This document shows, in pieces, positions 1-16,452 of a DNA stretch of 16,452 nt; position 1 is the first letter of the stretch; each line of letters begins with the position of its first letter. This DNA comes from a bacterium (GTDB lineage Bacteria > Zhuqueibacterota > Zhuqueibacteria > Oceanimicrobiales > Oceanimicrobiaceae), in the NCBI GenBank assembly GCA_046757165.1, contig JBHHXT010000102.1, positions 1 through 16,452 on the forward strand, in the 5' to 3' direction. The position numbers were made by a program, and so were the translations under genes. The notes below the pieces were generated by a model. It made no database searches. It had not been told where the DNA came from and saw only the letters and a program-made list of their open reading frames with translations.

Positions 1-44
1 TGCAACGCTTTAGCGTTGCATGAAATGCTAAAGCATTTCACTCC
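1..44. repeat. Inverted doublet of REP-like palindromes (GTAG/GGAG class)
   Basis: 1-20 TGCAACGCT-TT-AGCGTTGCA is a perfect 9-bp hairpin. 21-44 on the minus strand reads GGAG-TGAAATGCT-TT-AGCATTTCA, a perfect 9-bp hairpin with a 5' GGAG. The two hairpins are 16/20 identical and all 4 differences are compensatory. Confidence 0.65.
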
Positions 45-51
45 TTACGTG

Positions 52-106
52 TTACGCAAAGGTTTTTCTCTGCGATCCCTTTGCGCCTTCGCGTCTTTGC
101 GTGAAA
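52..106. repeat. Short intergenic repeat element built of CTYYGCGN units (copy 1)
   Basis: Units ctctgcga (68-75), ctttgcgc (79-86), cttcgcgt (87-94), ctttgcgt-gaaa (95-106). Upstream ttacgcaaagg (52-62) is complementary to these units. A related copy lies in the opposite orientation at 12032-12070. Confidence 0.65.
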
Positions 107-192
107 TCTTTATCTTTTGGGATTTAATTTTCATTTCTTGCCAAAAAATGACAGAAAATAACTTGTCAGGTATTACACAACGGGAGACGCGA

Positions 193-6295: not shown

Positions 6296-7840
6296 ATGGA
6301 GACAATACATTTCATGACCGGACTTGATGTTGGACTTTTGCTCGTGTATGGCACCGTCCTGTTGATGCTGGTGGTTTTCGGTCTTCACAAGTATTTTTTG
6401 CTCTGTTTATACTGGAAATACAAGAACGTTTGTCCCTATCAGGCGGAGCACCAGGATGAGCTGCCCGCGGTAACGGTACAACTCCCGATTTTTAATGAGC
6501 GATACGTCGTCAAACGGCTTATCGACGCGGTCTGTTCACTGGACTATCCGAAGGATTTGCTCGAGATTCAGATTCTGGATGACTCGACCGACGAGACCAG
6601 CGACATCTGCCGGAATCTCGTTGAGGCGTATCAAGAGCAAGGCTTCAGCATTGAGCATATTCAACGCCCGAACCGGGTTGGGTTTAAAGCCGGCGCGCTC
6701 GACTATGGTCTGAAAATCTGCAAAGGTGAGTTTTTGGTGATTTTCGATGCGGATTTCGTGCCCCAGCCAGATTTTCTGCAGCAAACCATCCCCTATTTCC
6801 AGAATAAGGAAATCGGTCTGGTGCAGACGCGCTGGGGACATATCAACCGCGATTATTCATTGCTGACCAGAATTCAATCGATGTTTCTCGACGGCCATTT
6901 TATCATCGAACACGTGGCGCGCAACCGGTCTGGCCGTTTTTTTAATTTTAACGGCACAGCAGGCATCTGGCGTCGGGACGCGATCACCGACGCGGGTGGC
7001 TGGCAACACGACACGCTAACCGAGGACCTGGATCTCAGTTACCGGGCTCAGTTGGCAGGGTGGAAGTTCCTGTACCTGCCGGATGTTGTCGCGCCAGCCG
7101 AGTTGCCGGTTGAAATGAATGCCTATAAGTCGCAACAGCACCGCTGGGCAAAAGGATCGGTGCAAACGGCCAAGAAGCTGCTGCCCGCGATCATGAAAAG
7201 CAAGATCCCATTGTTTGTCAAGCTGGAAGCCAGCGTTCATCTGTTCAGCAATTTCACCTACCTGTTCATGACGATTCCAGCGATTCTGATGCCGATTGTT
7301 TTGCATATTCAGCTCGACCGGGGGTGGCAGTGGATGGTCTACATTTATCTATTCACGTTTTTTTCGGCCTCATTGTCCGTGATCTTGTATTACCTGGTTT
7401 CGCAGCGGGAGAGCAGCAAGGGATGGAAAGAACAGATTCCGTACATGCCACTGTTGATGTCCCTCGGAATCGGGTTGTCGATCAACAACGCCAAGGCGGT
7501 GTTAGAGGGAATCTTCAACCACACCAGCGAGTTCAAGCGAACGCCGAAGTACAAGATCGAGAGATCAGAAGACACCTGGCGTAAGAAACACTATCACGCT
7601 GAATTCAATTTGCAGCCGGTCATTGAAATTCTGCTCGGCGGCTATTTCATCGCCGCATTTGTGAGCTTGCTTGGTAAGGGATTGTACGTTTCAATTCCGT
7701 TCTTCTTTCTGTTTCAATTCGGATTTATCTACATTGGCTTGACATCGTTGCTGCAGTCTAAACCGTTCACCCTTTCGCTGCGTCATCTCAGACTATTCTT
7801 TCAGAATGCGATCCTGGTGTTTACGAAATGGCTGTTCTAA
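6296..7840 (+). CDS. Membrane GT2 glycosyltransferase, cellulose-synthase-like (CslA/CslC-type)
   Basis: VTVQLPIFNE, QILDDSTD, GFKAGAL, IFDADF, VQTRW, FNGTAGIWR, TLTEDLDL and QQHRW (D,D,D,QxxRW). One N-terminal and several C-terminal TM segments. Alternative start at ATG 6314. Confidence 0.92.
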   Translation: METIHFMTGLDVGLLLVYGTVLLMLVVFGLHKYFLLCLYWKYKNVCPYQAEHQDELPAVTVQLPIFNERYVVKRLIDAVCSLDYPKDLLEIQILDDSTDETSDICRNLVEAYQEQGFSIEHIQRPNRVGFKAGALDYGLKICKGEFLVIFDADFVPQPDFLQQTIPYFQNKEIGLVQTRWGHINRDYSLLTRIQSMFLDGHFIIEHVARNRSGRFFNFNGTAGIWRRDAITDAGGWQHDTLTEDLDLSYRAQLAGWKFLYLPDVVAPAELPVEMNAYKSQQHRWAKGSVQTAKKLLPAIMKSKIPLFVKLEASVHLFSNFTYLFMTIPAILMPIVLHIQLDRGWQWMVYIYLFTFFSASLSVILYYLVSQRESSKGWKEQIPYMPLLMSLGIGLSINNAKAVLEGIFNHTSEFKRTPKYKIERSEDTWRKKHYHAEFNLQPVIEILLGGYFIAAFVSLLGKGLYVSIPFFFLFQFGFIYIGLTSLLQSKPFTLSLRHLRLFFQNAILVFTKWLF

Positions 7841-7886
7841 GCCCCGGCAACGAACAAAAACCGCTTGCTATTTTCTGGAGATTTCT

Positions 7887-7944
7887 TAATTTAGGGTGCA
7901 GGTTTGATTTTGTTTGCCTAAAATCGAACCTGCACCCTAAGTTA
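7887..7944 (+). repeat. Long inverted repeat (25-bp stem, 8-nt loop) between the GT2 gene and trxA
   Basis: TAATTTAGGGTGCAGGTTTGATTTT (7887-7911) pairs with AAAATCGAACCTGCACCCTAAGTTA (7920-7944): 23 Watson-Crick pairs plus 2 G-U. Confidence 0.9.
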
Positions 7945-7992
7945 TTCAGGTAACTTTGTAACGAATCTTGTGCATCAACAAGGAGATGTTCG

Positions 7993-8316
7993 ATGGCTAC
8001 ACCGCAGACCTTCACCGATGATAATTTTCAGTCCGAGGTCCTTTCTTCCGATGTTCCGGTTTTGGTAGACTTCTGGGCCGAGTGGTGCGGACCGTGCAAG
8101 ATGATTGCGCCATCTATCGCCGAACTTGCGACTGAATTCGAGGGCAGAGCCAAGATAGGCAAGTTGGATGTAGATAGCAATCAGACGGTCGCCAGTCAGT
8201 ACGGTATCCGCAGCATCCCGTCGCTTTTGATTTTCAAAAATGGCGAAGTGGTTGAGCAAATCGTTGGTGCCGTGCCGAAAAACGCAATTCAGTCTAAACT
8301 GGAAGCGACACTTTAA
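7993..8316 (+). CDS. trxA: Thioredoxin
   Basis: [18 protein letters not shown] and YGIRSIPSL. 107 aa. RBS AAGGAG at 7980-7985. Confidence 0.97.
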
Positions 8317-8335
8317 TCCCATCGCAATGAATTGG

Positions 8336-8373
8336 AAGGGCACTTGAAAGCGAGTTCAAGTGCCCTTTTTTAT
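8336..8373 (+). terminator. Rho-independent terminator after trxA
   Basis: AAGGGCACTTGAA-agcgag-TTCAAGTGCCCTT, a 13-bp stem running into a T-tract. Confidence 0.85.
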
Positions 8374-8390
8374 GTGCACGGTCATCCAGC

Positions 8391-9599
8391 ATGAGTTTTG
8401 ACGTTCTTGTTGCCGGCGCCGGACCCGCCGGACTTTCTGCCGCTTTCGCCGCCGCCAAAGGCGGTGCCCGGGTCGCTGTTTTCGAGCGCAGCAAAGAAAT
8501 CGGCTATCCCATCCATACCAGCGGTGGAAGCTGGATTGACGAGCTGCGCAAACTGGACATCCCGCAGCGATTTATGTCTCCCGTGCGGCAGGGGGTTTTC
8601 GTCTCACCTCATGAACGTGCCACCTTCACCTATGACGAGCCTCTGAGCTGCGTCCTCGATGTTCGTGGCCTGTACCAGTATTTGGCGGAGCTCGCCTCGC
8701 AGGCGGGCGCGGTGATTTTTGTTGACAGTCCGGTGACTCAGCCTTTTATGAACGGGGGCGAGCTTGCGGGTTTGCGGGTGCATCAGTTCGGACACCAGGT
8801 CACGTTTGAAGCACGTCTGGTGATTGACGCGAGCGGTGCCGCTGGTTTTGTTGCGCGCAGATTGGGGCTGACCAGCGGCGTTCGAAGAGTCGGGGTCGGG
8901 GCCGAGTATGACCTCTATGCACCGGACTGGCCGGCGGGGAAGGTGGCGCTGCTTTTCGGGAGCCATATCGCGCCCAAAGGCTACGGCTGGGTTTTTCCGC
9001 ACACCAACCGCCGTGTCCGGGTCGGGATTGGCCTCATTCGCCCGGACACGAAAAAGAGTCCTCGACATTATCTCGAGACCCTGCTAGCAAAGCGCACGCT
9101 ATTCAGCGATGAATTGGCTCGCATCAGTCGGCTGGAGCTCCACACCGGTATCATTCCGAGCGAGGGCTGCGTGCAGCCGACTGTCGCCAACCATTTCATG
9201 ATCACCGGTGATGCCGGCGGGTTGGTTTCGACGCTGCTGGGGGAGGGCATTCGTTTCGCGATTTCGATTGGACGGATGGCCGGGGAGGTGGCAGCTGAGG
9301 CTGTGAGGGAGGAACGCTATGATGTGCAATTCTTGAGGAAATATGAGAGAAGCTGGAAGAAAAGATATGGCAGGATGTTTCAAATAGGCGCCCTGCTCAA
9401 CGACCGTCTGGCCAGTTACTCAGACGACCAGTGGGACGAAAAGATTCGCGCCCTCGCCCGGATGGAACCGGTGCTCGTTGCCCGAATCCTGAAAGGCGAC
9501 TTCACCTATAAGCTGCTTCTGGACCTCATCAAGACGCGAACCCATCTCGTGAGTCGTACGTTCTCATCCGGCCTGAAATCTCTCTTGAAAAATGCTTGA
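8391..9599 (+). CDS. Geranylgeranyl-reductase-family FAD-dependent oxidoreductase
   Basis: DVLVAGAGPAG (Rossmann), VIDASG, PKGYGWVFP (PxxYxWxFP) and GDAGG..GEGI. 402 aa. Confidence 0.85.
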   Translation: MSFDVLVAGAGPAGLSAAFAAAKGGARVAVFERSKEIGYPIHTSGGSWIDELRKLDIPQRFMSPVRQGVFVSPHERATFTYDEPLSCVLDVRGLYQYLAELASQAGAVIFVDSPVTQPFMNGGELAGLRVHQFGHQVTFEARLVIDASGAAGFVARRLGLTSGVRRVGVGAEYDLYAPDWPAGKVALLFGSHIAPKGYGWVFPHTNRRVRVGIGLIRPDTKKSPRHYLETLLAKRTLFSDELARISRLELHTGIIPSEGCVQPTVANHFMITGDAGGLVSTLLGEGIRFAISIGRMAGEVAAEAVREERYDVQFLRKYERSWKKRYGRMFQIGALLNDRLASYSDDQWDEKIRALARMEPVLVARILKGDFTYKLLLDLIKTRTHLVSRTFSSGLKSLLKNA

Positions 9600-9624
9600 T
9601 TTTGTCGAATAGAATTCATAATTT
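9596..9624 (+). promoter_or_regulatory. Putative sigma70 promoter upstream of the manC leader
   Basis: TTGATT (9596-9601), 17-nt spacer, TAATTT (9619-9624). Same style as the other promoters in the window. Confidence 0.5.
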
Positions 9625-9746
9625 TTTTTGCTGGCTACCTGCTTGCCACGTCAATGAGTTTAGTGATAAAATGAACACGTTTGAACGGAACTGAATCGAA
9701 GATTGTATCATCGCGTTGTAATACATAACATAAGCAATCAGAAATG

Positions 9747-9801
9747 AATGCCATTGCTTGATTTGATGCGAAAAGTGAATCAAGACAATGGCATTTTTTT
9801 T
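9747..9801 (+). terminator. Terminator-like hairpin 30 nt upstream of manC
   Basis: AATGCCATTGCTTGATTT (9747-9764) pairs with GAATCAAG-A-CAATGGCATT (9777-9795): 17 WC pairs, 1 GU, one bulge. An 8-T run spans 9794-9801. Confidence 0.6.
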
Positions 9802-9831
9802 CGATGCCATCTCACACGCAGGAGTGACTAG

Positions 9832-10902
9832 ATGTTTGCTCTCATTATGGCAGGGGGATTGGGCACGAGGTTTTGGCCCAAAAGCCGCAAAGGGCATCCC
9901 AAACAGGTCCTGGAGATTATCGGTGAGAAATCGTTGCTCCAGAACACCGTTGAGCGATCGGAGAAGATAATTCCAACAGACAAAATTTTCGTCGTCTCTA
10001 CTCGAGAACAAGTGGCCCAAATAAAGAAGCATATTGGCGCCGTGCCGGATGCCAATATCATCACTGAACCCAAGAGAAAAAACACGGCACCCTGCATCGG
10101 GCTGGCGGCTTTGTTCATGGAACGCCTGGACCCGGAGGCGGTCATGGTCGTTTGCCCTGCGGACCACTTGATTTCCAACTATGAGGTGTTCAACGAAACG
10201 TTGAGAGTCGGCGAGAAGGTCGCCTCCGAAACGAATGGGCTTGTGCTCATCGGCATAGAGCCACACTATCCGGCAACAGGCTACGGCTACATCCAGTTCA
10301 GGCAAAACCTGCAGCACATCGGGGATATCAGCCTGTTAAAAGTCAAAGCGTTTGCGGAAAAACCGAACCGGGAAACCGCTGAACGGTTCCTGCGCAGCGG
10401 CGATTTTCTCTGGAACAGCGGCATCTTTATCTGGAAAATCCAAACCATCCTGCGCGAGATCGAAGAACATGTGCCCCAGCTTTATGACGGCTTGATGGAG
10501 ATTCGCGCGGCCATCGGGACGCCCCGGCAGGAGGAAACGATCAACCGGGTGTATTGTCAAATTCGCAGCATTTCCATCGACTATGGTGTTATGGAGAAAG
10601 CCAAAGAGGTCATGGTGTTGAAGGGCAATTTTGGCTGGAATGATCTGGGCAGTTGGGACGAGGTGTATAAACTCAGGGAAAAGGATAAAAACGAGAATGC
10701 GCTGATCGGTGAGCACATCATCAAGGATTCCACGGGTTGTTATATCGATGCGCCCGAGAAGTGCATTGCTGTGATTGGCATGGAGAATCTGGTCGTGGTT
10801 GATACCAGGGATGCGCTGCTCATCTGTCCACGCGACCGCGTGCAGGAGGTCAAGGATATTGTTGAAATTGCCAAACGTAAGAAGATGGAGCGCTTTTCAT
10901 AA
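9832..10902 (+). CDS. manC: Mannose-1-phosphate guanylyltransferase (monofunctional, no cupin isomerase domain)
   Basis: LIMAGGLGTRFWPKSR..PKQ, EPKRKNTAPCI, PADHLI, TGYGYI, FAEKP, WNSGIF, SIDYGVMEK and WNDLGSW. RBS GGAG at 9821-9824. Confidence 0.93.
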   Translation: MFALIMAGGLGTRFWPKSRKGHPKQVLEIIGEKSLLQNTVERSEKIIPTDKIFVVSTREQVAQIKKHIGAVPDANIITEPKRKNTAPCIGLAALFMERLDPEAVMVVCPADHLISNYEVFNETLRVGEKVASETNGLVLIGIEPHYPATGYGYIQFRQNLQHIGDISLLKVKAFAEKPNRETAERFLRSGDFLWNSGIFIWKIQTILREIEEHVPQLYDGLMEIRAAIGTPRQEETINRVYCQIRSISIDYGVMEKAKEVMVLKGNFGWNDLGSWDEVYKLREKDKNENALIGEHIIKDSTGCYIDAPEKCIAVIGMENLVVVDTRDALLICPRDRVQEVKDIVEIAKRKKMERFS

Positions 10903-10911
10903 TCGTGTAAG

Positions 10912-11172
10912 ATGACTATCGACGATGTTCTTGATAAGCTCGAAGAGCTGCTGGATGGTTTGTCCATCGAAATCCGCTATGAGAAAGGGGACTTTCATGG
11001 GGGCTTGTATCGATACCGGGACAAGCAGCAAATGGTGATCAACAAAGACCTTGCTATTGAGCAAAAGATCAGGATAATCGCAGATGAGATAAGAACAAAT
11101 GTCGAATTTGACAACCTGTATTTGGTCCCTGCTCTGAGAGAGGTAATCGAGAATGCAAGTCGTGTGGAGTAA
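10912..11172 (+). CDS. Small conserved hypothetical protein
   Basis: 86-aa ORF tightly between manC and the PTS IIA gene. The pattern IEIRYEKGDFHGG..MVINKDL..KIRIIADEI..LYLVPALREVIE resembles a small FCB-group family. Confidence 0.75.
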   Translation: MTIDDVLDKLEELLDGLSIEIRYEKGDFHGGLYRYRDKQQMVINKDLAIEQKIRIIADEIRTNVEFDNLYLVPALREVIENASRVE

Positions 11173-11209
11173 TCAAAATGGCATGAACAGCTCTAAAGAA
11201 GGGAAGACG

Positions 11210-11674
11210 ATGGAAAGAAAAGACTTAACCAAATACTTTAGTGAAAGCCTGTTTATCGCAAGCCTGCAGGCAACCACCAAAGAGGAATCCCTGGAAGAGC
11301 TGGCCGGACTCTTTGTTGACAACAAGAGCATTCGCAATAAGGAAATCGTTATCGAAATGCTCCAAAAACGAGAGACGCTTGGCAGCACCGGTATCGGCAA
11401 GGGCGTTGCGATTCCACACGGCCGAACCACGGCGGCTATCGATGTCAAGATTGCGTTTGGCCGGTCGGAGAAGGGCATCGAATTCGCTGCCATCGATGAA
11501 AAGCCAGTTTATTTGATTTTTCTCGTTTTGGCGCCGCCCCAGGAAGAAAACAACCGGTATTTGCCGGTTTTGGGAAAGCTCGTGGAAGTCTTGCATGATA
11601 ACGCGAATCGGGAAAAGCTGCTCAAAGTTGAAAACTACACGGATCTCATCCAGACGATCGAGGGGGTAGGGTAA
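11210..11674 (+). CDS. PTS EIIA type-2 domain protein (PtsN/fructose-mannitol IIA-like), stand-alone
   Basis: RETLGSTGIGKGVAIPHGR (phospho-His motif) and GIEFAAIDEKPVYLIF. ATG 11210 follows AAGGGAAG; alternative ATG at 11183. Confidence 0.9.
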   Translation: MERKDLTKYFSESLFIASLQATTKEESLEELAGLFVDNKSIRNKEIVIEMLQKRETLGSTGIGKGVAIPHGRTTAAIDVKIAFGRSEKGIEFAAIDEKPVYLIFLVLAPPQEENNRYLPVLGKLVEVLHDNANREKLLKVENYTDLIQTIEGVG

Positions 11675-12009
11675 TGTTAAACAAACAGTTGGAGCTACTG
11701 GTGGCGTTGCAAGATCTGGATATCATGATCAAGGACGTCGAGGAGGTCAAGCAACTTGGCTTCGAGGTCGAGGGACGGGAAAAGCTGGAGGAGGCCCGCC
11801 ACGAGCTCGTCGGAAAGATCAGCAAACCCCTGGTGTTCAATTATGAGAAACTGAAAAAGAGATACAAACGCGCAATCGTACCCGTGAAACAGGATGTTTG
11901 CCTGGGCTGCTTCATGCGCGTGCCCACGCAGTTGATCACCCGTGGGCGCAGCGATCAGGACGTGATAAACTGTGAGGGGTGCGGTCGAATTCTTTACTGG
12001 TACGAGTAA
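11674..12009 (+). CDS. C4 zinc-ribbon protein (DUF164/zf-RING_7, CT398/CdsZ-like), short form
   Basis: N-terminal LELLVALQDLD helix, then YEKLKKRY..AIVPV..CLGCFMRVP...CEGCGRILYW. The start overlaps the PTS IIA stop (TAATG). Confidence 0.85.
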   Translation: MLNKQLELLVALQDLDIMIKDVEEVKQLGFEVEGREKLEEARHELVGKISKPLVFNYEKLKKRYKRAIVPVKQDVCLGCFMRVPTQLITRGRSDQDVINCEGCGRILYWYE

Positions 12010-12031
12010 CCAACCTAACCTGAGTCATTCA

Positions 12032-12070
12032 TTCACCGCAAAGGCGCGAAGCACGCGAAGTTTTCGCAGA
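12032..12070. repeat. Short intergenic repeat element (copy 2, inverted relative to 52-106)
   Basis: Reverse complement tctgcgaaaa-cttcgcgtg-cttcgcgc-ctttgcggtgaa aligns with 69-105 tctgcgatcc-ctttgcgc-cttcgcgt-ctttgcgtgaa. Lies between convergent genes. Confidence 0.65.
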
Positions 12071-12078
12071 TTCATGAA

Positions 12079-13209
12079 TTATTCAGGCGACAAGGGCGTT
12101 TCGTAAATCGCGTACTTCTTGTAGATTGTGGCCCCAAGTCCCTGCAGGGCACGATTCATCAAGGTGTTGTCCTCCAGGATCCAGGAAAACTCCCCGAGTG
12201 AATACCCCTTCTCTGTTCCCCGTCGATAGGTTTCATAATAAAACGCCGGTGCCAGGCCGCGCTTGCGTTGAAACTTCTGTCGCACGCCCAGTGTGATGAC
12301 GCGCACCCGCTTTATCTTTTTCTTGTTCAACAGCAGTTTGAAAATGCCGAATGGCAACAAGCGACCGTTCAGGTCCTTGATGATCTCATTGAAATCCGGC
12401 ACAGCCAGGGAAAAGCCGGCCGGTTCACCATCGACCTCCGCGATGTACACAATGTCCGGGTCGACCGCGGGTTTGAGATCTTCGGCCAGATGTTTGAATT
12501 CGTCATCGGTCATGGGCACGAACCCCCAGTTGTGTTGCCACGCGTCGTTGTAAATCTCTTTGACAATTTCTACTTCTTGCTCGAATTGCTTCATGTTGAT
12601 GGTGCGAAATGTGAGCGTCTTGTCTTGCAGGGTTTTCTGTGCGAATTTGACAAACCGCTCCGGAATCGGCATACTGCTATCGAAGCAATAGGCATAGAGC
12701 TCTTTGCATTTCTTCAGGCCTGCCTCTTCTGCCAGGCTGAGATAGTACCGGGGATTGTAGGTCATCATGATCACGGGGCTCGAGTCGAAACCATCGTAGA
12801 GCAGCCCCCAGGTGTCGTTGCTGGAAAAATTTGCCGGTCCCCGCATCAGGGTCATCTCCTTGCCGCGAAGCCATGCCTTAGCAGTTTCGAGCAGCTTGCT
12901 TGCGACCTCCGCATCATGGACGCTTTCGAAAAAGCCGAAAAAGCCAGTGGTTTCATCGTGGAAGCGATTGTGGTTGTTGTTGAGAATGGCCGCAATTCTG
13001 CCCACCAGCTCTCCATTCTTGCGGGCGAGAAAGAGTTCTGCCTCGGAGTGAAGAAAAAAGGGATTTTTGTTCTTGTTGAGGATTCTTTTCATGTCGATGA
13101 GCAGCGGGGGCACCCAGTGCTCATCATCGCGATAGATTTTCCACGGCAGCTTGATAAAATCGTTGAGGTCTTTTCTCGAGTGCACCTGCACGATGTCGAT
13201 GGTGTTCAT
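12079..13209 (-). CDS. GNAT-fold acyltransferase of the YghO / bacterial ceramide synthase (bCerS)-like family
   Basis: 376 aa with FIKLPWKIY..WVPPL, NPFF, VGRIAA, GFFGFFE, MRGPANFS, MMTYNPRYY, YNDAWQHNWGFVPMT, PDFN, LGVRQKFQ and SWILEDN..MN. Starts 31 nt after the spt stop, with RBS GAAGGGGAG. Confidence 0.78.
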   Translation of the reverse strand: MNTIDIVQVHSRKDLNDFIKLPWKIYRDDEHWVPPLLIDMKRILNKNKNPFFLHSEAELFLARKNGELVGRIAAILNNNHNRFHDETTGFFGFFESVHDAEVASKLLETAKAWLRGKEMTLMRGPANFSSNDTWGLLYDGFDSSPVIMMTYNPRYYLSLAEEAGLKKCKELYAYCFDSSMPIPERFVKFAQKTLQDKTLTFRTINMKQFEQEVEIVKEIYNDAWQHNWGFVPMTDDEFKHLAEDLKPAVDPDIVYIAEVDGEPAGFSLAVPDFNEIIKDLNGRLLPFGIFKLLLNKKKIKRVRVITLGVRQKFQRKRGLAPAFYYETYRRGTEKGYSLGEFSWILEDNTLMNRALQGLGATIYKKYAIYETPLSPE

Positions 13210-13240
13210 CGCTCCCCTTCCTCTGAAATAGCGTTCGCCG

Positions 13241-14422
13241 CTAAATTAACCCAAACTCCTTGCCCAAGCGCTCGAAAACATCCAGGACGATGTTGAGCTC
13301 TTCATCGGTATGCGTCGCCATGTAGCTGGTTCGGATGAGCGACTTGCCGGGCGGGACGGCTGGCGGAATCGCCGGGTTGGCAAAAACGCCGTTTTCAAAC
13401 AGCTTTTTCCAGAAGACGAACGTGTCGGCGTCCTCGCCGATCACGATGGGGATAACCGGGCTTTCGCTGCCGCAGGTGTCGAAACCAAGCTGGTCAAATG
13501 CGCGCTTCATCTTGTTGACGTTGTGCCAAAGTTTTTCACGACGCTCGGGTTCTTTTTTGATAATGTCGAGCGCAGTCAAAACCGAGGCGGCATTGGCCGG
13601 CGGAATGCTGGCAGAAAAAATCAGCGCCCGCGCATGGTGCTTAACATAATGAATGACACTTTCGGTAGAAGCGATGAACCCGCCCAGAGAGGCGAACGAC
13701 TTGCTAAAGGTCCCCATGGTGATGTCGACCTCCTGCTCCAGGCCGAAGTGCTCGGCGGTGCCGCGACCATTCTTTCCGAACACGCCTATGGAGTGGGCGT
13801 CATCGACCATGACACGCGCACCATATTTCTTTGCCACTTTGACGATGTCTGGCAAGTCGATGAGATTGCCCTCCATGCTGAAAACGCCGTCCACGACGAT
13901 GAGCTTGCCGGCGTTTGGATTGCTGGCGGCCAACAGCCGTTCCAGATCTCGCATGTTGTTGTGCTTAAACTTGACCACCCTGCCAAATGAGAGGCGGTTG
14001 CCATCCACGATGCTCGCGTGGTTCTTCCTGTCTGCGAAGATAACATCATCTTTGCCGACGATCGTGGCCAGGGTGCCCAGATTGGTCTGGAAGCCGGTAG
14101 AGAAGACCAGCGCCGCTTCGGCTGCCATGAATTCAGCCAGTCTCTGCTCCAGCTGCTCGTGTAGAGAAAGGGTGCCATTTAGAAAACGCGAGCCGGTGCA
14201 ACCGGACCCAAATTTTTCGATCGCATCTTGTGCTGATTTCTTGATGCGCGCATCCTGCGTGAGCCCCAGGTAGTTGTTTGAGCCGATCATAATGAGCTTG
14301 TGACCGTCGATGACGACTTCCGAGTCCGCCCCTGATTCAATTGCCTTGAAGTATGGATACCAACCTTGTGCCTGTAATTCTCTTGCACGCGTAAAGTTCT
14401 TGCACTTATCGAATAGATCCAA
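13241..14422 (-). CDS. spt: Serine palmitoyltransferase (PLP-dependent alpha-oxoamine synthase family)
   Basis: TTG start at 14422 with AAAGGAG 8 nt upstream. YPYF, GSNNYLGLT, GSRFLNGT, STGFQTNLG, HASIVDG, DGVFSMEG, DDAH, PLP-lysine GTFSKS, IFSAS and IRTSYMATH. The pattern follows Bacteroidota-type Spt more than BioF or Kbl. Confidence 0.8.
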   Translation of the reverse strand: MDLFDKCKNFTRARELQAQGWYPYFKAIESGADSEVVIDGHKLIMIGSNNYLGLTQDARIKKSAQDAIEKFGSGCTGSRFLNGTLSLHEQLEQRLAEFMAAEAALVFSTGFQTNLGTLATIVGKDDVIFADRKNHASIVDGNRLSFGRVVKFKHNNMRDLERLLAASNPNAGKLIVVDGVFSMEGNLIDLPDIVKVAKKYGARVMVDDAHSIGVFGKNGRGTAEHFGLEQEVDITMGTFSKSFASLGGFIASTESVIHYVKHHARALIFSASIPPANAASVLTALDIIKKEPERREKLWHNVNKMKRAFDQLGFDTCGSESPVIPIVIGEDADTFVFWKKLFENGVFANPAIPPAVPPGKSLIRTSYMATHTDEELNIVLDVFERLGKEFGLI

Positions 14423-14468
14423 GTTGTGGTCTCCTTTAGTGATTGAGTTCGCATGGTTGGAAGGCCTA

Positions 14469-14497
14469 AATATACTTAATGCTGGAGAAGAAATCAA
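14469..14497 (-). promoter_or_regulatory. Putative sigma70 promoter of the spt-bCerS operon
   Basis: Minus strand TTGATT (14497-14492), 17-nt spacer, TATATT (14474-14469), about 46 nt upstream of the TTG start. Confidence 0.65.
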
Positions 14498-14530
14498 GGC
14501 AAAAAGTGCTGCCACAATCAAAACAGGGGC

Positions 14531-14559
14531 TTGATTCTTTCCTCGAATCTGGCTATTTT
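14531..14559 (+). promoter_or_regulatory. Putative sigma70 promoter for recD
   Basis: TTGATT (14531-14536), 17-nt spacer, TATTTT (14554-14559). ATG is 14 nt downstream with no SD. Confidence 0.5.
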
Positions 14560-14573
14560 GGCTCCGGTTCACC

Positions 14574-16430
14574 ATGACAGACAAGACCACTTTACATCAG
14601 AGCAAATCCATTTCTGCGCTCGATATCCACTTTGCGCGCCTGATGGCGCGACTGTCGGAATCCAAGAACGAGGCACTGTTTCTGGCCGCCGTGCTGGTCA
14701 GTAGTCAAACCCGGGCCGGCCATGTCTGCCTGGACCTGAATGACCTGTGTGATTCAACATTCCTGCGCGAGCAGTTTGGCGATGATCTCGGGTCTTTGCC
14801 GGTTACCGCACTCCAGGAGATCGAGTCGACGCTCGCCGCCGAATCGGTCGTGGTGGGGCGGCCGGGTGAATTCAAACCCCTCATCCTCGACTCTCATAAC
14901 CGACTCTATCTCAACCGCTATTGGCGCTACCAGGAGGCCCTCGCCCGGTTCATCAAGAACAGCGGGCATCTGGCGCAGAAGCATTTCGATTCTCAGGAGT
15001 TGAAAGAACGGCTGGATCGTTTCTTCGCTCCGCCGTCTGCCGGTGAAGTCGACTGGCAAAAAGTGGCGGTCATCATCGCCGTGATGAGAAAGTTCTGTGT
15101 GATCACGGGCGGCCCTGGAACAGGCAAGACGTTTACGGTCGCCAAGATTATCGCAATCTTGCTGGAGCTCAGCGGCGATGATGAGCTGCGCGTTGTTCTG
15201 GCGGCCCCGACCGGCAAGGCGGCGGTCCGGTTGCAGGAGGCGATACAAGCGGCCAAAGAGCATCTTCCGTGCACACCACATCTCAAAGCAGCGATTCCGG
15301 AAGAGGCCTCGACCCTTCACCGGCTGCTGGGCACCCGTCGCTACTCCCCCTATTTTCGTCACAATGCAGACCGTCCTCTGGAGGTGGATGTCCTCGTCGT
15401 CGACGAGGCCTCCATGGTGGATATCGCTCTCATGTCCAAGCTTGTCCAGGCGCTGCCGCCGCACGCACGACTCATTCTGCTTGGCGACAGCAACCAGCTC
15501 GCCTCCGTTGAGGCAGGTGCCGTGCTTGCAGATATCTGCCCCCAGGAGCAGGTGCACACCTTTTCAACAAGATTTGCGAGTCGCCTCGCTGAGGTTTATG
15601 GCCGGGAGCTTCCGGTCGAGACCGTGGACTCCGAAGGCGTCCACGACAGCATCGTCTTGCTGCAGAAAAGCTACCGGTTTGCGTCACAAAAGGGCATCGG
15701 CGAGATAAGCAGTGCCGTGAATGCGGGAGATGGAGCGGGTGCCCTGAACGTGCTCAAAGCGGACGATCTTCCGGATGTCTCCTTGAACAGCCTGAGCGAG
15801 GACGGGTTGAAGCGCATGGTTCTGCAGCCCTTCCAGACCCATTCTGTTCTGCATGAGCCGGCCGAGATGTTCGCGCGTTTTGCGAGATTTCGAATTCTTT
15901 GTGCCGTGCGGGAGGGGCCACAGGGTGTGAGCAGGATCAATGCGCGGATTGAGGAGTTCAACAGGAAGGAGCTGGGTGTCAAGCGCACCGAGATCTGGTA
16001 TCCGGGCCAGCCCATCCTGATCGCCCGGAACGATTACCAGATGCACCTGTTCAACGGTGACTTCGGCATCATCCTGCCGGATCCGGACGCGAATAACGAG
16101 CTGAAAGCATATTTCCCGGCAGGAGGCAATGCCTTCCGCAAGATCCGGCCGTTCAGGCTTCCGGAGCACGAGACCGCCTACGCGATGACCGTGCACAAGA
16201 GCCAGGGCTCGGAGTTCGAGCACGTGCTTTTGCTATTGCCCGCAATGGATTCACCCATCCTAACGAGAGAACTGATCTACACTGGCATCACGCGTGCTGC
16301 CAGATCCGTTGAAATTTGGGGGGATGAGGGCGTGTTCAAAGCGGCAGTTGCCAGGCGTGTGAAGCGGGCTTCCGGGTTGCGAGAGGCATTGTGGGGGGCG
16401 ACAGACTTCGCTGCGAAAAAAGTCATTTAG
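14574..16430 (+). CDS. recD: Exodeoxyribonuclease V alpha subunit (SF1B helicase)
   Basis: RecD N-terminal GHVCLDL..RLYLNRYWRYQ, DWQKVA, ITGGPGTGKT, APTGKAA, TLHRLLG, VDEASMVD, LGDSNQLASVEAG, KSYRF, NGDFG, AMTVHKSQGSEF and YTGITRA. Confidence 0.95.
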   Translation: MTDKTTLHQSKSISALDIHFARLMARLSESKNEALFLAAVLVSSQTRAGHVCLDLNDLCDSTFLREQFGDDLGSLPVTALQEIESTLAAESVVVGRPGEFKPLILDSHNRLYLNRYWRYQEALARFIKNSGHLAQKHFDSQELKERLDRFFAPPSAGEVDWQKVAVIIAVMRKFCVITGGPGTGKTFTVAKIIAILLELSGDDELRVVLAAPTGKAAVRLQEAIQAAKEHLPCTPHLKAAIPEEASTLHRLLGTRRYSPYFRHNADRPLEVDVLVVDEASMVDIALMSKLVQALPPHARLILLGDSNQLASVEAGAVLADICPQEQVHTFSTRFASRLAEVYGRELPVETVDSEGVHDSIVLLQKSYRFASQKGIGEISSAVNAGDGAGALNVLKADDLPDVSLNSLSEDGLKRMVLQPFQTHSVLHEPAEMFARFARFRILCAVREGPQGVSRINARIEEFNRKELGVKRTEIWYPGQPILIARNDYQMHLFNGDFGIILPDPDANNELKAYFPAGGNAFRKIRPFRLPEHETAYAMTVHKSQGSEFEHVLLLLPAMDSPILTRELIYTGITRAARSVEIWGDEGVFKAAVARRVKRASGLREALWGATDFAAKKVI

Positions 16431-16452
16431 CGCTTCGCGCCGTCATTTGCCC

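Follow-up and report, generated by a model that had tools for sequence, protein, structure and literature searches.

The 16,452-nt stretch analyzed here (hereafter the window; positions 1–16,452 of contig JBHHXT010000102.1, or C102 in our numbering) carries two intact genes on its minus strand that form a putative sphingolipid operon. The first, spt, encodes an alpha-oxoamine synthase resembling serine palmitoyltransferase (Spt), and the second, bcerS, encodes a YghO-type protein resembling the bacterial ceramide synthase bCerS. Together with a gene for a short-chain dehydrogenase/reductase (SDR) similar to CerR on another contig (C100), they probably specify the three enzymes of the known bacterial ceramide pathway, the first two in the window and the third elsewhere. 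Judging from this gene content, the bacterium likely makes ordinary ceramide. An earlier note on the window had proposed a two-gene operon with 31-nt spacing and a 376-aa YghO-type protein, and both genes were found where it placed them (Table 1).

Organization of the spt–bcerS locus

The listing of open reading frames (ORFs) begins the spt frame at GTG 14590, which would give a product of 449 aa. The supported start is TTG 14422 (393 aa), given the strong ribosome-binding site (RBS) that the earlier note had recognized, which lies 7 nt upstream, and the TTG or GTG found at the matching codon in 20/20 relatives. In the window and in all of these relatives the spt start is never ATG and has a strong RBS upstream, and the non-ATG start is possibly a conserved translational brake. 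The dedicated promoter described in that note is a weak match by itself (9 of 12 consensus positions, with 7 such sites in 4.5 kb compared with 2.2 +/- 1.8 in shuffled sequence), yet a TTG-type -35 box, a 17-nt spacer and an invariant TATATT lie 46–60 nt above the spt start in the window and in 15/15 aligned family relatives, and this conservation places the site beyond chance. We infer that spt and bcerS are co-transcribed.

The pair is flanked by a convergent Zn-ribbon gene and a divergent recD. As had been noted before, profile scans of the neighbouring genes revealed no bio or tdh gene adjoining spt–bcerS, and no gene for CerR, an acyl carrier protein (ACP) or an acyl-CoA ligase lies within the operon. 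Contigs from three sequencing runs that are a possible source of this DNA cover positions 11500–16431 unbroken and without frame differences, and in that study a further run, the fourth, gave a contig spanning 12602–14867.

Table 1 Features of the spt–bcerS locus and the cerR-like gene. Positions refer to the window unless a contig is named.
Feature	Position	Strand	Description
spt	13241..14422	-	Alpha-oxoamine synthase, serine-palmitoyltransferase-like, 393 aa, TTG start; lysine K241 (in GTFSKS) for pyridoxal 5'-phosphate (PLP), H135, D207, H210, A271
bcerS	12079..13209	-	Putative YghO/aca-type N-acyltransferase, 376 aa, ATG 13209 to TAA 12079
spt–bcerS gap	13210..13240	-	31 nt, containing a purine-rich RBS for bcerS; assigned from sequence
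spt RBS AAAGGAGA	14430..14437	-	7 nt before the TTG start; relatives have a GGAG-type site before TTG/GTG
Predicted sigma-70-type promoter of spt–bcerS	14469..14497	-	-35 TTGATT 14497-14492, 17 nt, -10 TATATT 14474-14469
Divergent promoter-like site	14531..14559	+	TTGATT-17-TATTTT; faces recD here, cerR in relatives
recD	14574..16430	+	Outside the ceramide pathway; sits where most relatives have cerR
cerR-like SDR	C100:7711-8691 (this genome, G000)	+	Outside the window; directly after recC-recB

Gene 1 resembles serine palmitoyltransferases

The top NCBIfam model for the spt product (gene 1) is SerpalmtaseCFB (NF047600) at 559.9 bits, followed by BioF/Kbl-like (420.6), BioF (401.9), Kbl (390.7) and HemA (270.8). 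It reaches the curated cut-off of no NCBIfam model, BioF and Kbl included. Automated annotation had been expected to read this gene as BioF; the best model is already Spt, though without passing a cut-off. Among solved structures the closest is the SPT of Sphingobacterium multivorum (SmSPT; PDB 3A2B and the 8GUH series) at 448 bits over ungapped residues 4–385, compared with 314 bits for the best BioF/Kbl and 231 for a cysteate acyltransferase. The catalytic and PLP-binding set of SmSPT (His138, Asp210, His213 and Lys244 in GTFSKS) is present in gene 1 as H135, D207, H210 and K241. PMC10196870 names 29 residues of the SmSPT site, of which gene 1 keeps 26, BioF/Kbl-type controls 11–15 and the E. 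coli Spt 17.

Trees were built from 70 rows (quick) and from 26 of these rows (careful), with no HemA row, HemA being compared by profile alone. The careful tree places gene 1 within an 18-row group containing the Bacteroidota and E. coli Spts (97/96), separate from BioF and Kbl, and both trees put it among rows from KSB1 and Zhuqueibacteraceae, with Zixibacteria as neighbours. Compared with SmSPT and the Bacteroidota Spt described by NF047600, the window Spt belongs to a KSB1 and Zixibacteria branch beside the Bacteroidota one, and differs at N50, T76 and I268. The phylogeny against BioF and Kbl that the earlier note had called for groups gene 1 with the Spts, and an Spt-like identity is supported.

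An Spt-like protein with 54% identity to the window Spt is encoded on a Priestia megaterium plasmid (L186:5001-6215), where a methyltransferase and an acyltransferase lie alongside and no YghO-type neighbour occurs within 5 kb on either side.

Gene 2 is a YghO-type protein, a putative acyltransferase

The bcerS product (gene 2) is 38% identical to YghO of E. coli BL21 over 376 aa (E 2e-83) and is the sole YghO match in the genome. Fig. 9 of PMC9386255 pairs yghO/ECD_02850 with its Caulobacter homologue aca (CC_1154), and the paper likewise matches ECD_02852 to CC_1164. The Pfam domain Acetyltransf_1 (PF00583) covers residues 47–119 of gene 2 with 27.4 bits (cut-off 20.7), and Atlas look-alikes of the protein carry PF00583 (0.98). 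Sequence and profile searches returned no relative with a solved structure. Gene 2 has no transmembrane segment (maximum hydropathy 1.06), and YghO shares 40 of the 54 columns that are invariant among 69 homologues.

Neighbourhoods were counted for the best 80 of 189 GTDB loci encoding gene 2 homologues. An alpha-oxoamine synthase lies nearby in 50/80, directly upstream in 41, and a CerR-like SDR in 36/80; both partners are present in 30/80. Five of the 30 loci without Spt had less than 1.5 kb of upstream DNA to inspect. These results support gene 2 as a YghO/aca-type, bCerS-like protein.

YghO-type paralogues besides the spt-linked copy, at 27–46% identity, occur in G023, G025, G026, G028, G030, G033, G038 and other class-level relatives. 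A PAP2_3 membrane protein, a possible head-group transferase, adjoins the ceramide genes in 10/80 loci of other phyla (e.g., L043:7258-8235). The PAP2_3 homologue in this genome (C138:196-1164) is just 23% identical and unlinked, so no head group can be assigned. Four Acidobacteriota loci (L030, L057, L061 and L070) encode a distant, ~510-aa member of the alpha-oxoamine synthases, whose gene converges on bcerS and lies beside a CerR-like gene; three of the four also carry an acyl-AMP ligase, and the L057 synthase, the only one scanned, has an N-terminal acyl-carrier domain.

A CerR-like reductase on another contig

A genome search for CerR, as the earlier note had advised, was carried out with E. 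coli epi (ECD_02852) and with linked SDRs as queries. The best match to epi is the SDR on C100 (28% identity, E 3e-34; runner-up 6e-20), which is also the best genome match for 35/35 submitted SDRs linked to spt or bcerS (36 were found and one duplicate excluded). The gene is intact and encodes GxxGxxG and YxxxK motifs. Orthologues occur in 20/20 family genomes and 39/40 relatives, and the quick SDR tree groups the C100 protein with its syntenic orthologues (99). Within the family, cerR lies head-to-head with spt in 15/20 genomes, apart from it in three (G004, G005 and G008), and is unjudgeable in two. Queries for spt, bcerS and cerR each matched 30/31 near-complete genomes, which are kin and so not independent. 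The one miss is each time G027, a class relative that is 98% complete and that may have lost the whole pathway together.

Genes past cerR on C100 match those past cerR in relatives, and the read depth of C100 and the window contig is alike (~24–26) in the three possible source runs. On the basis of this shared gene order and similar depth, C100 belongs to the same genome, and a CerR-like reductase is likely encoded there. Of the options offered before, namely a reductase elsewhere, a reductase of a different type, or keto-ceramide as the end product, the first holds and neither of the others is needed. Two genes past cerR lies a gene for a peptidase M2 of the angiotensin-converting-enzyme family (C100:9702-11828, L084), a position kept in G004 and G008.

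Exchange of cerR and recD

In this genome recD is divergent from spt, and cerR follows recC-recB in the same orientation, with a gap of 203 nt to recB. The same spt|recD and recB-cerR junctions are found in G005, a relative of another genus with the nearest Spt (89%), and in both genomes recD is separated from recC-recB. The alternative pairing, with recB followed by recD and spt facing cerR, occurs in G003, G014 and G015. A divergent promoter-like site 23–34 nt from the spt -35 box is present in 9/12 genomes with cerR at that place, and also in this genome and G005. It appears that recD took over this site, which in relatives points toward cerR. The simplest account would be a reciprocal exchange of cerR and recD by one inversion. 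The history may have included more than one, since spt, cerR, recD and recB all lie apart in G004 and G008, which counts against the simpler version.

Insertion of a recD-recC-recB block between spt and cerR, which would make C102 and C100 neighbours, was considered and rejected: the two contigs do not overlap, and the gene after recD in G005 and G004 matches contig C124, not C100. The end of the window lies in a high-copy repeat, and two repeats are located in the recB-cerR gap. The absence of cerR beside a spt–bcerS pair can reflect simple rearrangement.

Predicted ceramide pathway and alternative readings

Profiles, trees, active-site residues, synteny and gene co-occurrence all support the proposal, made in the earlier note, that an Spt and a bCerS-like GNAT protein act here in ceramide synthesis. 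In the first step, the PLP enzyme, with K241 as the Schiff-base lysine, would join L-serine and a long-chain acyl thioester with release of CO2, yielding 3-ketosphinganine. The acyl donor is likely an acyl-CoA or a housekeeping acyl-ACP, as no dedicated AcpR or close AasR was found. The YghO-type protein would then add a second acyl chain by N-acylation of 3-ketosphinganine to give 3-oxo-ceramide, and the C100 SDR, using NAD(P)H, would reduce the C3 ketone to form dihydroceramide. We infer the chemistry of all three steps by analogy. This sequence follows the Caulobacter model, in which Spt forms 3-ketosphinganine, bCerS performs the N-acylation and CerR reduces the ketone (PMC11087976). The opposite order, with reduction first, is mentioned in the same paper, and the order of the second and third steps is disputed. 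CerR is periplasmic in Caulobacter (PMC11087976).

Several observations weigh against this assignment. Gene 1 falls short of the NF047600 equivalog cut-off (559.9 vs 640 bits), and the 18-row group that contains it is not purely Spt, as it takes in a paralogue from Chitinophaga that has the Lys typical of SulA. Neither Spt nor an SDR is nearby in 24/80 gene 2 loci, and several class relatives carry 2–4 YghO paralogues, so YghO homology alone is no proof of ceramide synthesis. The paralogues imply that the YghO family extends beyond ceramide synthesis; the spt-linked member is the one in the window. The tie to Caulobacter bCerS and CerR is indirect, by way of E. coli homologues for which PMC9386255 suggests roles but does not demonstrate them. 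Finally, the quick SDR tree nests four other SDRs of this genome among the syntenic ones and forms no clean CerR clade, and orthology of the C100 SDR to the E. coli protein is accordingly drawn from best hits and synteny.

The same three genes might instead include an Spt that prefers alanine, glycine or lysine and leads to 1-deoxy- or lysine-type ceramides. In favour of this reading, three SmSPT site positions are changed in gene 1 (S53->N50, A79->T76 and M271->I268); A79 of SmSPT touches the substrate side chain via water (PMC10196870), and N50 and T76 are conserved in all 8 KSB1 and Zixibacteria tree rows. Orphan 1-deoxy- and lysine-type lipids are known from anoxic water columns, with anaerobic producers inferred by co-abundance (PMC11334938). 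However, the Spt of E. coli BL21 likewise carries N, T and I there and its product migrated like 3-oxo-sphinganine (PMC9386255), and Ile at the M271 position is also found in Bacteroidota Spts. We regard a non-serine substrate as unlikely. A broader proposition, that KSB1/Zhuqueibacterota are near-universal ceramide producers whose Spt branch (N50, T76, I268) uses non-serine substrates and is the source of the orphan 1-deoxy- and lysine-type ceramides of anoxic marine waters, is speculative and likewise improbable.

A further reading accepts the first two steps and takes 3-oxo-ceramide as the end product, the C100 SDR being no ceramide reductase or having fallen silent since its move behind recB. 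The protein is just 28% identical to its E. coli homologue, its quick tree lacks a clean CerR clade, and the promoter-like site directed at cerR in relatives no longer accompanies the gene. Yet it is intact, retains its motifs, is present in 20/20 family genomes and stands head-to-head with spt in 15. The moved arrangement has been retained in a second genus (G005), and in the present genome cerR reads in the same direction as recB, 203 nt behind it. With the reductase present on C100, keto-ceramide is very unlikely to be the end product.

That gene 1 is BioF or Kbl, with gene 2 an unrelated acyltransferase adjacent by chance, is barely credible. Gene 1 does reach 390–420 bits on the BioF and Kbl models, as do all family members. 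However, approximately unbiased (AU) tests rejected every joining of the KSB1 rows to these enzymes (BioF/Kbl-type pair p 4e-5, Kbl 3e-5, BioF 6e-4; long branches are present in the tree), another gene, of BioF/Kbl type, is present in the genome, and the spt–bcerS pairing is conserved across many phyla. That other gene, on C12, is the one other alpha-oxoamine family member in the genome and scores above the cut-off for BioF as well as for Kbl. Searches with BioB and BioD of E. coli gave no match in the genome (E<=1e-10). A cysteate acyltransferase (SulA/CapA) producing sulfonolipid can be dismissed with near certainty: SulA enzymes share the fold and stand near the Spts, and the broad group containing them includes one SulA-type row, but Lys281, the discriminator stated in PMC9304779, corresponds to Ala271 in gene 1 and to Lys in the Chitinophaga paralogue, and the match to the cysteate acyltransferase of solved structure reaches 231 bits vs 448 for SmSPT.

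Relation to known systems and host lineage

The predicted three-enzyme pathway can be compared with characterized and predicted systems. The ceramide genes of Caulobacter crescentus are Spt CC_1162, bCerS/aca CC_1154, CerR/epi CC_1164, AcpR CC_1163 and AasR CC_1165. The E. coli BL21(DE3) cluster, from yghO/ECD_02850 to spt/ECD_02854, has full-length homologues here (Spt 37%, YghO 38%, epi 28%). BL21(DE3) carries yghO, epi, acpR and spt, and the strain may provide the second and third steps on its own (PMC9386255). The present genome differs from Caulobacter and E. coli in having an Spt of the Bacteroidota subgroup, spt next to bcerS, and cerR on another contig. The rhodobacterial Spt system depends on AcpR and AasR, whereas dedicated acpR and aasR genes were not found here with E. 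coli queries: AcpR gave no match at E<=1e-4 in a search of ORFs of at least 70 codons, and matches to AasR were only ~25% identical. E. coli BL21 has an extra lptF/lptG pair inside its ceramide cluster, compared with the one pair in this genome. The window Spt is like SmSPT in its GTFSKS motif, its 26/29 site residues and its Ala at the SulA Lys position. With SulA/CapA of Alistipes finegoldii (PMC9304779) gene 1 shares the alpha-oxoamine synthase fold and core residues, but the Lys281 position is Ala and the score is much lower. An environmental parallel is the 'Spt-like' clade B from Black Sea metalipidomics (PMC11334938), where a similar prediction was made for Spt homologues of uncultured anaerobes with bCerS and CerR nearby.

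The earlier note had tentatively placed the host in a lineage related to the Fibrobacterota–Chlorobiota–Bacteroidota (FCB) group. Named homologues of gene 2 and RecA are mostly from candidate division KSB1, with some from Calditrichota or Bacteroidota, and in the Spt tree relatives at the level of class stand next to Zhuqueibacteraceae. The host is likely a member of KSB1/Zhuqueibacterota, an FCB phylum (PMC11683472), in agreement with that placement.

Spt-like genes with bCerS and CerR have been predicted in 40 phyla, and co-location is not required (PMC11334938). The names KSB1 and Calditrich are absent from the available main text of that paper, and the lineage may be in its supplement. Literature searches found no paper joining KSB1 with sphingolipids, none among those listed that links Zhuqueibacterota, Calditrichota or Zixibacteria to Spt, and none on a YghO/BT3032/GNAT link; the available text of PMC11683472 on Zhuqueibacterota contains no 'sphingo', 'ceramide' or 'lipid'. 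The spt–bcerS–cerR set is an ordinary addition to a pathway already predicted across ~40 phyla and leaves the pathway itself unchanged. If the assignment is true, one more uncultured FCB lineage, with the three genes in 30/31 near-complete relatives searched, would join the predicted ceramide makers, which would help annotation and the source assignment of environmental sphingolipids.

Other features of the window

A block at positions 6296–12009 is oriented toward bcerS, a convergent layout seen in most relatives of the family and order. It encodes a GT2 glycosyltransferase, a thioredoxin, a FAD (flavin adenine dinucleotide) enzyme of the geranylgeranyl-reductase family, ManC, an 86-aa ORF, PTS EIIA and a Zn ribbon. 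The block shows no sign of belonging to the ceramide pathway; the GT2 protein and the reductase are candidate lipid modifiers. Positions 1002–2237 encode a 411-aa HMGL-like protein (LeuA/homocitrate-synthase-like) that scores below every NCBIfam cut-off. Short high-copy intergenic repeat families, each with dozens of copies genome-wide, occupy window positions 1–175, 12010–12063 and 16402–16452, as well as C100:7508-7710.

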